The translations under genes were made by a program, and so were the position numbers. This document shows, one piece after another, positions 1,933-4,051 of a stretch of DNA of 4,051 nucleotides. The notes beneath the pieces are model-generated. The model was given only the letters and a program-made list of their open reading frames with translations, made no database searches and had not been told where the DNA came from. Each line of letters starts with the position of its first letter. Within the stretch, counting starts at the first letter, position 1. The stretch is from the NCBI RefSeq assembly GCF_024223415.1, contig NZ_CP100507.1; one strand, written 5' to 3'. Source of the stretch: Escherichia coli (GTDB lineage Bacteria; Pseudomonadota; Gammaproteobacteria; Enterobacterales; Enterobacteriaceae).

Positions 1933-2127
1933 TTATATCCCGGTGCGATTTTCCGCTTCAAAGCGTGTCTGTATGCTGTTCTGAAGTTCTTCCGCGAGTT
2001 CGTGCAGCTTCTCACACATGGCGGCCTGTTCGTCAGCATCAAGTGCGTCCAGTTTTTCGAGCAGCGTCAGGCTCTGGCTTTTTATGAATCCTGCCATGTT
2101 GAGTACGGTTTGCTGCTGCTTGTTCAT
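1933..2127 (-). CDS. rop: Rop/Rom, RNA I-RNA II kissing-complex modulator (64 aa)
   Basis: MNKQQQTVLNMAGFIKSQSLTLLEKLDALDADEQAAMCEKLHELAEEL... aligns by eye along its length with pBR322 Rop (MTKQEKTALNMARFIRSQTLTLLEKLNELDADEQADICESLHDHADEL...). Its position and orientation relative to the origin match pMB1. GGAG lies 11 nt upstream of the ATG. Confidence 0.93.
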   Translation of the reverse strand: MNKQQQTVLNMAGFIKSQSLTLLEKLDALDADEQAAMCEKLHELAEELQNSIQTRFEAENRTGI

Positions 2128-2410
2128 CTTTCTGTTTTCTCCGTTCTTTCTGTCATCTGCGTTGTGTGATTATATCGCGTACCACTTTTCGACTGTTTTA
2201 CCGTCGGTATTCTGCTGTCTGACTCTTTGACGGGCATTTCTGTCAGACAACACTGTCACTGCCAAAAAACTGCCGTGCCTTTGTCGGTAATTTGAGCTTG
2301 CTGACAGGACAGGATGTGCAATTGTTATACCGCGCATACATGCACGCTATTACAATTACCCTGGTCAGGGCTTTGCCCCGACACCCATGTCAGATACGGA
2401 GCCATGTTTT

Positions 2411-2734
2411 ATGACAAAACGAAGTGGAAGTAATACGCGCAGGCGGGCTATCAGTCGCCCTGTTCGTCTGACGGCAGAAGAAGACCAGGAAATCAGAAAA
2501 AGGGCTGCTGAATGCGGCAAGACCGTTTCCGGTTTTTTACGGGCGGCAGCTCTCGGTAAGAAAGTTAACTCACTGACTGATGATCGGGTACTGAAAGAAG
2601 TTATGAGACTGGGGGCGTTACAGAAAAAACTCTTTATCGACGGCAAGCGTGTCGGGGACAGGGAGTATGCGGAGGTGCTGATCGCTATTACGGAGTATCA
2701 CCGTGCCCTGTTATCCAGGCTTATGGCAGATTAG
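2411..2734 (+). CDS. mobC: MobC-family ribbon-helix-helix relaxosome accessory protein (107 aa from ATG 2411; alternative ATG 2387 gives 115 aa)
   Basis: RPVRLTAEEDQEIRKRAAECGKTVSGFLRAAALGKK has the beta-strand/helix/helix RHH layout typical of MobC/NikA-type mobilisation accessory proteins. GGAG (2398-2401) lies 9 nt before ATG 2411. There is no Shine-Dalgarno before 2387. Confidence 0.7.
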   Translation: MTKRSGSNTRRRAISRPVRLTAEEDQEIRKRAAECGKTVSGFLRAAALGKKVNSLTDDRVLKEVMRLGALQKKLFIDGKRVGDREYAEVLIAITEYHRALLSRLMAD

Positions 2735-2898
2735 CTTCCAGGGGAGAAAACTGTCGAAAACAGACGGTATGAACACTGTAAGCTCCCAAAGTGATCACCA
2801 CTCGCTTTCATGCATAGCTATGCAGCGAGCTGAAAACGATCCTGACGCATTTCCCCGGTTTTCTTAGGGTAAAACATCTCTTTTTGCAGTGTCTGTGT

Positions 2899-2923
2899 CA
2901 GAATCGCGCTGAGCGCGATTCTG
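2899..2923. repeat. Perfect 25-nt palindrome (12-bp arms, 1-nt centre) abutting the XerC arm
   Basis: CAGAATCGCGCT-G-AGCGCGATTCTG. Its reverse complement differs only at the central base. The equivalent ColE1 cer position carries a shorter, imperfect GC hairpin followed by Ts (from memory). Confidence 0.85.
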
Positions 2924-2924
2924 T

Positions 2925-2954
2925 GGTGCGTACAATTAAGGGATTATGGTAAAT
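2925..2954 (+). promoter_or_regulatory. XerC/XerD recombination core: XerC arm GGTGCGTACAA (2925-2935), 8-bp central region TTAAGGGA (2936-2943), XerD arm TTATGGTAAAT (2944-2954)
   Basis: Direct read of the sequence. It matches the ColE1 cer core and is closely related to dif (GGTGCGCATAA-TGTATA-TTATGTTAAAT). Confidence 0.9.
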
Positions 2955-2958
2955 ACAA

Positions 2959-3225
2959 TTGGTTAAATTACTATTGGTGAGAAATGAATATTTCAATAAA
3001 AACAATGACTTAAAAACCGTTGCTCGGTTTGACGGTAAAACCTTAAGAGATGCCTTTTCGAGAAAAATAGCGACTTTTGATGGCAAGGTTTTAAGGGATG
3101 CCTCTTTAAAAAAAGTAGCAACCTTTGACGGTCAGAATTTAAGAGATGCTAGTTCAAAAATTATCCTGAGTGCCGATGCTGAGGTTGGGATTGTTGTTAT
3201 GGCCTTTGTAGCTGAGTTGATTTGA
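2959..3225 (+). CDS. Hypothetical small protein with three 16-aa tandem repeats and a hydrophobic C-terminal tail (88 codons from TTG 2959; GTG 2977 is an alternative start)
   Basis: Open frame from 2959 to TGA at 3223-3225. The repeats are VARFDGKTLRDAFSRK / IATFDGKVLRDASLKK / VATFDGQNLRDASSKI. The conserved residues use different synonymous codons between copies (gac/gat/gac, ggt/ggc/ggt, aga/agg/aga, gcc/gcc/gct), which argues for selection on the protein. Against: no in-frame ATG before codon 82 and no recognisable Shine-Dalgarno. Confidence 0.55.
   Translation: MVKLLLVRNEYFNKNNDLKTVARFDGKTLRDAFSRKIATFDGKVLRDASLKKVATFDGQNLRDASSKIILSADAEVGIVVMAFVAELI
3019..3162 (+). repeat. 3 x 48-bp diverged tandem repeat (3019-3066, 3067-3114, 3115-3162), in frame with ORF 2959-3225
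   Basis: Hand alignment gives about 31/48 identical nt between copies 1 and 2. The period is a multiple of 3, and much of the variation within the conserved F-D-G-x-x-L-R-D-A core is at third codon positions. Confidence 0.85.
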
Positions 3226-3507
3226 ATCTCATGCTGCATACCTTTTAGCCTATCGCTGGCAGGATAAGGCGCTTTCTTGTTGGTGACAGAAAGATAAAAA
3301 ACTTTATAATAATCAGCGAAGCGGGCGAACCACGCCTGGCTCTCGCTCTTTAACAAATGGTTACGTGTATGTTGCGCAAGGAAACCGATGCCTTGTTTTT
3401 AAGGCGATCTCGCATGAGATCATGACCGGCCTGGCCGCTAATTAATGGTGAGAACGCCCCTGAGCGTGTATCAGCACTAAAAGAATAGCGACGATTGTCT
3501 GGCAATG

Positions 3508-3520
3508 TGAGTTAAAAGTC
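3508..3520 (+). repeat. Inverted repeat arm a1 (candidate)
   Basis: 13/13 complementarity to 3780-3792. Confidence 0.7.
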
Positions 3521-3594
3521 CCAAAGAGCCAATAGAGTTTTTCCTTGCTTTCCTACTGGTCTGGCAAAATTTCATAACCAATAGGAGTTGCATC

Positions 3595-3777
3595 ATGTTT
3601 ATTATCAACATCAACATTAACGTAACCAAGAGCTCTTCATCTTGTTCTGGAGACGGTCAGATGAAGAAAAAAAGAGAGGTTGGCTCTCTGGAGGCACTGA
3701 AAAAAACACAGTTTTTGTTTTCTATGTGCTTGATTATGTTTAAAGTAATAGATTACGTATCGAAACTTTTTAACTAA
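3595..3777 (+). CDS. Hypothetical 60-aa ORF lying entirely inside the candidate retron ncRNA (internal alternative start 3661 gives 38 aa)
   Basis: AGGAG (3583-3587) lies 7 nt before ATG 3595, and GGAGA (3649-3653) lies 7 nt before the in-frame ATG 3661. The product MFIINININVTKSSSSCSGDGQMKKKREVGSLEALKKTQFLFSMCLIMFKVIDYVSKLFN is low-complexity with no motif I recognise. It may be non-coding. Confidence 0.3.
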   Translation: MFIINININVTKSSSSCSGDGQMKKKREVGSLEALKKTQFLFSMCLIMFKVIDYVSKLFN

Positions 3778-3779
3778 TC

Positions 3780-3792
3780 GACTTTTAACTCA
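3780..3792 (+). repeat. Inverted repeat arm a2 (candidate), preceded by a degenerate tandem copy at 3765-3776 (ACTTTTTAACTA vs ACTTTTAACTCA)
   Basis: 13/13 complementarity to 3508-3520. The adjacent near-duplicate offers an alternative pairing register. Confidence 0.7.
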
Positions 3793-3798
3793 AACATC

Positions 3799-4051
3799 AT
3801 GAATAAACCCAGGTTTAATGGAACTCCTGTTGCATCTTTGGATTCTTTATCTGCGATGTTAGGCATAGAAAGAAAAAGATTGGACTGGATAGTCAAGTCT
3901 GTATCGATGTCGTACAAGCAGTTTAAGGTTGAAACAGGGAAGAATAAAAAAGAAAGGCAAATTTTTGAACCCAAGAGATCTTTGAAAGGAATTCAAAAAA
4001 AAATAAATAAAGAGATTTTTGAGAAAATTGATTACCCTCATTATTTGCATG
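3799..4051 (+). CDS. Retron-type reverse transcriptase, 5' part (84 codons + 1 nt; runs off the window end and continues at nt 1)
   Basis: ATG at 3799 with no stop through 4051. An in-frame TAA at 3775-3777 makes 3799 the only available start. The translation MNKPRFNGTPVASLDSLSAMLGIERKRLDWIVKSVSMSYKQFKVETGKNKKERQIFEPKRSLKGIQKKINKEIFEKIDYPHYLH fits the retron RT N-terminal pattern (Y..F.h.K..G..R.I..P...LK.IQ..I...I). It is absent from the supplied ORF track because it is open-ended. No obvious Shine-Dalgarno. Confidence 0.88.
   Translation, partial: MNKPRFNGTPVASLDSLSAMLGIERKRLDWIVKSVSMSYKQFKVETGKNKKERQIFEPKRSLKGIQKKINKEIFEKIDYPHYLH

Follow-up and report, generated by a model that had tools for sequence, protein, structure and literature searches.

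A probable beta-flower gene, out of frame with its native start codon, between cer and retron Se72 on a ColE1-type plasmid

The beta-flower fold is a shallow barrel of beta-hairpin "petals" with 4-, 5- or 6-fold symmetry (Durairaj et al., 2023, PMC10584680). Three parts define a type V retron, namely a noncoding RNA (ncRNA), a reverse transcriptase (RT) and a cold-shock-domain (CSD) protein (Mestre et al., 2020, PMC7736814), and a synthetic construct of the type V retron Se72, pAA17, defends against phage lambda and is toxic with Gam and in a recB mutant (Millman et al.). Here we analyze a 4,051-bp stretch of Escherichia coli DNA (contig NZ_CP100507.1 of assembly GCF_024223415.1; hereafter the window) that carries retron Se72 and, between the retron and cer, an 88-codon open reading frame (ORF) built from three 16-residue repeats. 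Quite probably this ORF is the body of a genuine, stand-alone small beta-flower gene whose native start is the ATG at 2984, which has been put out of frame here by the deletion of one base from an A-tract, and which is not part of the retron. The missing ATG would thus be explained by a one-base deletion and not by unusual translation.

The repeats, the native start codon and the protein family

The gene consists of the following elements:
2959-3225, plus strand: the 88-codon ORF, annotated by PGAP from a TTG start (hypothetical protein WP_224471576.1); body of the putative beta-flower gene
2971-3018, plus strand: degenerate N-terminal unit (…NKNNDLKT), counterpart of the IKDDRLRT leader of the homologues
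2976-2980, plus strand: Shine-Dalgarno (SD)-like GGTGA, which would serve ATG 2984 with a 3-nt spacer
2984-3013, plus strand: putative ancestral start and first codons (MNISIK...), out of frame here, leaving a 9-codon stub (MNISIKTMT*) that ends with TAA at 3011-3013
2998-3002, plus strand: A5 homopolymer, the candidate frameshift site, 1 nt shorter than the A6 of in-frame alleles
3019-3162, plus strand: three 48-bp (16-aa) repeats, each a predicted beta-hairpin with F-D-G at the turn
3187-3219, plus strand: C-terminal hydrophobic helix (residues 77-87, GIVVMAFVAEL) predicted by AlphaFold2 (AF2)
3223-3225, plus strand: stop codon TGA

Tandem Repeats Finder reports a period of 48 bp at 3028-3160 (2.8 copies, 71% matches, score 126), and the codon reading agrees with the original prediction, made from the sequence of the window, that three tandem units share one frame: in the frame of the ORF, unit 1 (3019-3066) encodes VARFDGKTLRDAFSRK, unit 2 (3067-3114) encodes IATFDGKVLRDASLKK and unit 3 (3115-3162) encodes VATFDGQNLRDASSKI, with the 16-residue consensus h-A-x-F-D-G-x-x-L-R-D-A-x-x-x-K. 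Eight residues are common to all three units and, as that prediction had also noticed, conserved residues use different synonymous codons in different copies (five of the eight are written with more than one codon). Between units the proportion of synonymous differences (pS) is 0.62-0.83 and that of nonsynonymous differences (pN) 0.21-0.23, which gives a pN/pS of 0.25-0.37 in the ORF frame; the other two plus-strand frames give ratios of 0.54-1.45 (0.85 or more in six of the seven values), and both contain stops. Within the window alone the codon-position bias is not significant (5, 6 and 11 variable columns at positions 1, 2 and 3; chi-square p=0.24, 48 columns). Since these internal statistics are thin, the case for protein-level constraint is made from the homologues instead.

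A filter-free HMMER search of 1.84 billion representatives returned 40 proteins at E<1e-3, ranging from 52 to 3,819 aa. Most of them are 94-137 aa long and contain four to five "FDGKxLRDxxGxKIA" units and then a hydrophobic tail, for example ...GISLVALWVLLVR; some carry signal peptides. The window protein matches the representative P0024 with an E-value of 1.4e-26 and 55% identity, and other representatives are matched as well; the nearest relatives are 52-55% identical and read MSVTIKDDRLRTIATFDGKTLKDD...SIVVLAFAARLF. The C-terminal helix of the ORF aligns with the family tails …GISLVALWVLLVR and …SIVVLAFAARLF, in keeping with the hydrophobic C-terminus described earlier. In an Enterobacter-type chromosomal gene (L024) repeats 1 and 2 encode the same peptide with seven synonymous differences; between this gene and its counterpart on a Klebsiella plasmid (L015) pS is 0.84 and pN 0.10; and between the E. 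coli allele and L024 the synonymous sites are saturated at a pN of 0.29. With pN/pS at 0.12-0.44 across lineages and synonymous change close to saturation, the view that purifying selection acts on a peptide repeat, and that this is not a DNA-level array, is upheld, and the comparison places the ORF in a conserved protein family evidently under such selection.

As to which family this is, the sole Pfam match of the window ORF is PF21785 (Bflower_2, 5-fold beta-flower protein; E 2.2e-4, 21.5 bits), which is also the top match of sister alleles with four repeats (28.1 bits) and five repeats (32.3 bits, E 9.3e-8). Two relatives score above the gathering threshold of 38 bits, namely the core of P0061 (48.5 bits) and a Succinatimonas protein (L035, 45.8 bits), and PF21785 is preassigned to many of the proteins matched in the homologue search. 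On this evidence the ORF most probably belongs to the PF21785 beta-flower family as a divergent member, and a "hypothetical protein" of the plasmid gains a fold family. PADLOC, PHROGs and NCBIfam gave no meaningful match for the ORF, and a PDB sequence search with its product gave chance matches only (E > 0.04).

With a multiple sequence alignment AF2 models the 88-aa product as three regular hairpins (strands at residues 19-24/28-30, 36-40/44-47 and 52-56/60-63) followed by the helix at 77-87, with a predicted local distance difference test (pLDDT) score of 66 overall and 74-80 over the repeats; a single-sequence model (pLDDT 39) was uninformative. Profile search and structure prediction, both proposed with the original prediction, thus agree with its remark that the repeat resembles beta-hairpin modules: there is a family match with 40 relatives, and there are three hairpins and a helix at moderate confidence. 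From the model and the family description, each 16-residue repeat would fold into a single petal, a beta-hairpin that turns at F-D-G, and the shallow barrel would be plugged by the helix of the hydrophobic C-terminus. By analogy with Tubby-like folds, and from hairpin tips rich in Phe, Lys and Arg, we tentatively guess that the product is a peripheral membrane- or ligand-binding barrel. To our knowledge, no beta-flower has been characterized biochemically, and Foldseek searches against PDB and BFVD returned nothing significant.

The absence of an ATG from the ORF has its likely explanation one base away. The ORF frame is closed upstream by TAA 2950 and offers only TTG 2959, TTG 2974 and GTG 2977 as candidate starts; TTG 2959 lies 4 nt past the XerD arm of cer, as had been noted, and the first in-frame ATG is codon 81, one codon before the position previously given (82). 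The statement that normal translation signals are lacking is correct for this frame; it does not hold one base out of frame, where GGTGA precedes ATG 2984. The SD:anti-SD duplex predicted for this ATG with the 16S 3' end has an energy of -7.4 kcal/mol, against -2.7 for GTG 2977 and TTG 2974; it equals that of the AGGAG of the chromosomal homologue L024 and falls in the top 10% of window positions, and the site reads GGTGAG or GGTGAT in all sister alleles.

We extracted 15 alleles and aligned 13 plasmid alleles over the tract, which is A5, A6 or A7. In A6 alleles the codons ATG AAT ATT TCA ATA AAA AAC AAT GAC (MNISIKNND) run into the repeats, so that ORFs of 64-144 aa begin at the ATG equivalent to 2984 and read MNISIKNNDLKT...; for example, 4148-bp plasmids encode the 112-aa proteins WP_005761321.1 and WP_001027011.1, and a plasmid of 4244 bp encodes one of 144 aa. 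No gaps interrupt the codon-by-codon alignment of the A6 version with the Klebsiella gene (GTG AGT GTA ACT ATA AAA GAT GAT...) and with the Enterobacter-type chromosomal genes (ATG AGC GTA ACT ATA AAA GAC GAC...). Distant homologues begin MSVTIKDD, MATTIKDE, MTITIKDD, MPTTIKDD and MVCIKDD; the N-terminus M-x-x-[ST]-I-K-[DN]-[DN] is common to five separate lineages, each with a purine-rich SD, and homologues with AGGAG-N7-ATG occur. The codon alignment, the shared N-terminus and the SD sequences together mark A6 as ancestral and the window allele as having lost one A, and this comparison identifies ATG 2984 as the native start. Deletion of one A from the A6 tract after codon 5 would have thrown the ATG and first codons out of frame, and the leftover "ATG-less" body would simply happen to stay open back to TAA 2950. 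The window allele is presumably off or weakly expressed; possible routes to expression are GTG 2977, TTG 2959 or 2974, or a rare -1 P-site slippage on A-AAA-A that restores the frame from ATG 2984. For annotating or cloning the widespread 4-kb retron plasmids, the correct start is ATG 2984 in A6 alleles.

Alleles on plasmids at least 97% identical to one another have 1, 2, 3, 4, 5 or 7 repeat copies. The additional copies of the longer alleles are identical in DNA, which points to recent 48-bp slippage. The E. coli and Salmonella alleles compared do not differ over the 675 nt that separate the last repeat from the RT start, and four to five single-nucleotide polymorphisms (SNPs) lie in the 5' part. 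Both SNP backgrounds (GAGAA...ACCGTT and GATAA...ACTATT) include A5 as well as A6 tracts, with many repeat numbers; the tract has therefore changed repeatedly, in a manner that would fit adaptive switching and neutral decay alike. If the proteins are made, alleles of one to seven hairpins in near-identical plasmids are a natural test set for repeat-number change.

Several observations weigh against this account of the gene. On the side of the family, the window ORF and the 4- and 5-repeat alleles all score below the PF21785 gathering threshold, so that transitive homology is what ties the window protein and the 5-repeat allele to the family; the confidence of the AF2 model is only moderate; and three hairpins, all that the window allele has as full repeats, cannot close a 5-fold barrel as a monomer. 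On the side of expression, a simple promoter scan of 2700-3850 found no promoter for the 88-codon ORF, and A5 alleles are common (82 members in the P0001 cluster, and P0009 on 40 contigs) and occur with one to five repeats on the two SNP backgrounds; such alleles could be expressed from a non-ATG start and need not be null. As for independence from the retron, the ORF keeps its position upstream of the retron in diverged Klebsiella plasmids and has the retron's low G+C (36% vs 51% in the backbone), and a functional link between the two in the native plasmid is conceivable.

Homologues, neighbouring systems and alternative roles

The surroundings of the homologues bear on what the gene might do for its neighbours. 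We checked by tblastn for the RT, the CSD gene and the 60-aa ORF that precedes the RT in the window, and found none of them near the homologues in the following settings. In Enterobacter, Pseudescherichia, Pseudocitrobacter and Mixta (L024-L033, L048-L050) the gene follows a type I hsdR at a distance of 220 bp; elsewhere it comes after Bunzi bnzA/bnzB and IS256 fragments (L019-L023), or is carried by retron-less ColE1-type plasmids (L044/45, L046) and by an element of about 1.5 kb (L051). Among more distant members, one in Succinatimonas is flanked by dgkA and an alpha-2-macroglobulin gene, and one in a spirochaete by LigB-like and MBL genes. The closest subfamily thus borders three defence systems that are unrelated to one another: type I restriction-modification (R-M), Bunzi and the type V retron (the window and L015-L018).

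Two of the retron-less contexts have features of their own. L051 (JGI 3300007505 contig, 2681 bp) repeats itself with a period of about 1540 bp, which suggests a ColE1-like mini-plasmid of roughly 1.5 kb; the one clear gene on it, preceded by a good SD, is a beta-flower ORF of 64 aa. In L046 a frameshift-ridden radical SAM/SPASM gene (2381-3302, minus strand) lies beside a multi-repeat beta-flower gene broken by two indels; a PADLOC match to pVip made this a candidate fourth defence context, which we dropped because NCBIfam describes a generic radical SAM/SPASM fragment.

Of the alternatives that we weighed, the one that survives best would make the gene a general accessory or modulator of neighbouring immune systems, with the A-tract as an on/off switch and the repeat number as a means of tuning. 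The adjacency of the closest subfamily to the type V retron, to the hsdR of type I R-M and to BnzA/BnzB of Bunzi speaks for it, as do the occurrence of A5, A6 and A7 on two SNP backgrounds and the many repeat numbers. However, the hsdR cases are one orthologous locus; the gene stands alone on the tiny plasmids L051 and L044/45; the distant members have housekeeping neighbours; PADLOC finds no match; Se72 works without the gene; and five to seven A residues are short for classical phase variation. We consider this role unlikely, and are similarly doubtful of the related idea that beta-flower genes are mobile, switchable accessories at the edges of defence cassettes that modulate the neighbouring system or the interaction of plasmid and phage, for example at the membrane. 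The recurring place beside defence systems is nevertheless worth a proper enrichment test. A milder version of the latter idea holds that alleles of one to seven repeats may all be functional because barrels could assemble from several chains; if true, they would be a natural, still-evolving example of how 4-, 5- and 6-fold beta-flowers originate.

The remaining alternatives involve the plasmid and its retron, whose other features are:
3799-4051 plus 1-887, across the window ends: RT of retron Se72 (Retron-Sen1, type V)
892-1095: CSD effector (NF038236 retron_eff_Se72, 85 bits)
ColE1 origin with RNAI, located with Rfam
1933-2127, minus strand: rop
2411-2734: NikA/MobA-like gene
2925-2954, plus strand: GGTGCGTACAA-TTAAGGGA-TTATGGTAAAT, which we take to be the ColE1 cer core, with XerC arm (2925-2935), central region (2936-2943) and XerD arm (2944-2954)
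3283-3310, plus strand: promoter-like site GTGACA-16-TATAAT (11/12, near-consensus sigma-70), the only strong one in 2700-3850
3595-3777, plus strand: the 60-aa ORF, which immediately precedes the RT and has an ATG and an AGGAG-like SD (-7.2 kcal/mol)

The window covers the whole of a circular ColE1-type plasmid and matches E. coli pCol (NZ_CP066843.1), as well as several other records, at 100% identity; the region has carriers in 19 PLSDB records and in 27 of 5426 complete E. coli genomes. The cer core is the upstream neighbour of the 88-codon ORF and the site at which the shared ColE1 backbone ends: similarity to the backbone of other ColE1 plasmids is lost at 2954-2970 and returns at around 1091-1134. 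G+C is 36.3% in the ORF, 36.1% in the retron module and 51% in the backbone, with the low-G+C segment spanning 2955-4051 plus 1-1095 and the backbone 1096-2954, which suggests that ORF and retron module form one acquired segment. Directly left of the XerC arm is a perfect 12-bp inverted repeat (CAGAATCGCGCT G AGCGCGATTCTG, 2899-2923) that may be part of Rcd or of an accessory region. In larger plasmids IS26/IS15 copies lie beside or within the ORF (L010, NZ_CP116926.1; L011, CP034256.1; L003, NZ_AP027425.1), and in CP034256 replacement of the N-terminal half has left a chimeric ORF of 74 aa; resistance plasmids are thus taking up the small retron plasmid.

In the Klebsiella/Serratia 4261-bp ColE1 plasmids, L015 among them, the RT is 84% identical to the window RT and the order is cer core, a 48-aa homologue, about 580 bp, 60-aa ORF, RT and CSD. 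L015 275-540 compared with window 2955-3270 has flanks of 82-89% identity around a beta-flower gene too diverged for blastn; this gene is of the Enterobacter chromosomal type, with about 50% amino acid identity to the window protein. The pattern points to replacement of the beta-flower allele by recombination between E. coli and Klebsiella retron plasmids. Taken with the retron-less contexts, these comparisons identify the gene as what appears to be accessory cargo of ColE1-type plasmids and genomic islands, lying here between cer and the probable retron promoter.

The original prediction had raised the possibility that the 88-codon ORF is the "ORF of unknown function" required together with RT and CSD, and so a third protein component of retron Se72. 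In its favour, the order of ORF, about 575 bp, RT and CSD is the same in the E. coli/Salmonella plasmids and in the diverged Klebsiella ColE1 plasmids in which the ORF is also present, and the ORF shares the retron's low G+C; three plasmid ORFs are, moreover, reportedly needed for sdsDNA. Yet pAA17 equals window 3227-3625 exactly over the 399 nt shown and begins 2 nt past the ORF stop; since it starts there and works, the ORF is dispensable for Se72 defence. The promoter-like site at 3283-3310, downstream of the ORF and within this functional insert, is probably the retron promoter and would mark a separate transcription unit. The ORF product has neither a CSD nor an RT domain and is not among the three parts that define a type V retron (PMC7736814).

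More distant type V retron plasmids lack the ORF altogether: a six-frame search of the Hafnia, Pectobacterium, Edwardsiella and Halomonas type V loci with a hidden Markov model found no beta-flower ORF, with a Klebsiella positive control at E 2.5e-13 (their RTs are 60-65% identical to the window RT in the first three, which are plasmids, and 42% in the Halomonas locus). Conversely, homologues exist without an RT, and the gene is severed from its start codon in this very plasmid. The co-occurrence analysis that had been proposed as a check accordingly shows no consistent link with RT and CSD: the gene is absent from four type V loci and present without an RT in at least five other contexts. The published constructs and the co-occurrence data show that retron Se72 does not count the ORF among its working parts. 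The proposal of a third component is largely refuted for defence, and we regard it as very unlikely overall; a false lead, that of a hidden third retron protein, is thereby removed.

The published "ORF of unknown function" is more likely to be the 60-aa ORF at 3595-3777. A review's figure legend describes the unknown ORF of Se72 as "hairpin-containing, flanked by repeat regions", and this fits 3595-3777 instead of the 88-codon ORF. The 60-aa ORF lies between perfect 13-nt inverted repeat arms (3508-3520 and 3780-3792), contains a hairpin (3634-3642/3659-3667), and is overlapped by a further inverted repeat (3358-3374/3612-3628). It falls within what is presumed to be the ncRNA region of the retron, is hydrophobic in its C-terminal half and is 73% identical in the Klebsiella retron plasmids; our search gave no family match for it.

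It has also to be asked whether the 48-bp array acts as DNA or RNA (as iterons, as a recombination or regulatory element beside cer, or as part of the retron transcript), the open frame being incidental. The array abuts the cer core, the additional copies of longer alleles are identical in DNA, and this plasmid has no in-frame ATG or SD. But the Klebsiella and Enterobacter DNA is too diverged for blastn between flanks of 82-89% identity and still keeps the peptide period, the N-terminus and the hydrophobic tail; relatives have SD and ATG; Rfam, run over the window, matches RNAI only and nothing in the array; the ORF list of the window holds no antisense ORF that spans the array; and the array lies upstream of the promoter-like site, outside the functional insert. 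We therefore hold a DNA or RNA role to be extremely unlikely. Last, the speculation that repetitive, template-jumping cDNA synthesis by the retron RT left the repeat behind as a fossil has proximity to the RT in its favour and nothing else, and deserves next to no credence, given that chromosomes of Succinatimonas and spirochaetes that have no RT share this repeat architecture, an old protein fold, that differences between the units are mostly synonymous, and that the units are dissimilar to the retron region, with all the inverted and direct repeats found in the array internal to it.

Comparison with described systems

The Tubby C-terminal domain and At5g01750 (LURP-one/scramblase-like) belong to proteins two to three times larger than the ORF product and consist of 12 long strands; they share no sequence similarity with the ORF and gave no significant Foldseek match. 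The unknown ORF of Se72 (Rychlik 2001; Pilousova 2011) and the toxic small protein ("SP") in the hybrid RNA of the sister type VI retrons (bioRxiv 10.1101/2025.10.22.683967), which the 60-aa ORF recalls, share some traits with the 88-codon ORF. Like them, it is small, lies upstream of a clade-3 retron RT and has a hydrophobic C-terminal part. Unlike them, it is found upstream of the promoter-like site and outside the functional insert, whereas they lie inside the retron transcript between inverted repeats, and it has no sequence relation to either.

With phase-variable contingency genes the locus shares a frame-setting homopolymer (A5, A6 or A7) just past the start codon that is polymorphic among close relatives, and in-frame variation of repeat number among near-identical replicons. 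It differs from them in that the tract is short (5-7 nt), that there is no surface-exposed product and that no selective agent is obvious; the likeness is one between alleles, as distinct from switching within a population.

The closest likeness is to the beta-flowers of PF21785 and clan CL0395 (PMC10584680), which are likewise small bacterial proteins made of beta-hairpins in tandem; they have Phe and basic residues at the hairpin tips and, in PF21785, a C-terminal hydrophobic helix, a feature in which the ORF agrees with the family. The E-values are significant and close relatives of the ORF exceed the gathering score. The ORF subfamily departs from PF21785 in its own leader, M-x-x-[ST]-I-K-[DN]-[DN], in a shorter tail without the ...IDGxGG... 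linker, and in its one to seven repeats inside a single plasmid lineage. Read literally, the tip motif [DNEQ]xxG (PMC10584680) would be absent, the tip of the ORF being F-D-G-K; its turn is an invariant F-D-G-[KQ] with D-G conserved and with R or T, not D/N/E/Q, three residues before G, but PMC10584680 may set the motif in another register. Beta-flowers occur as 4-, 5- and 6-fold variants and as "half flowers", and the profile length of PF21785, 112, is the length of the 5-repeat allele.

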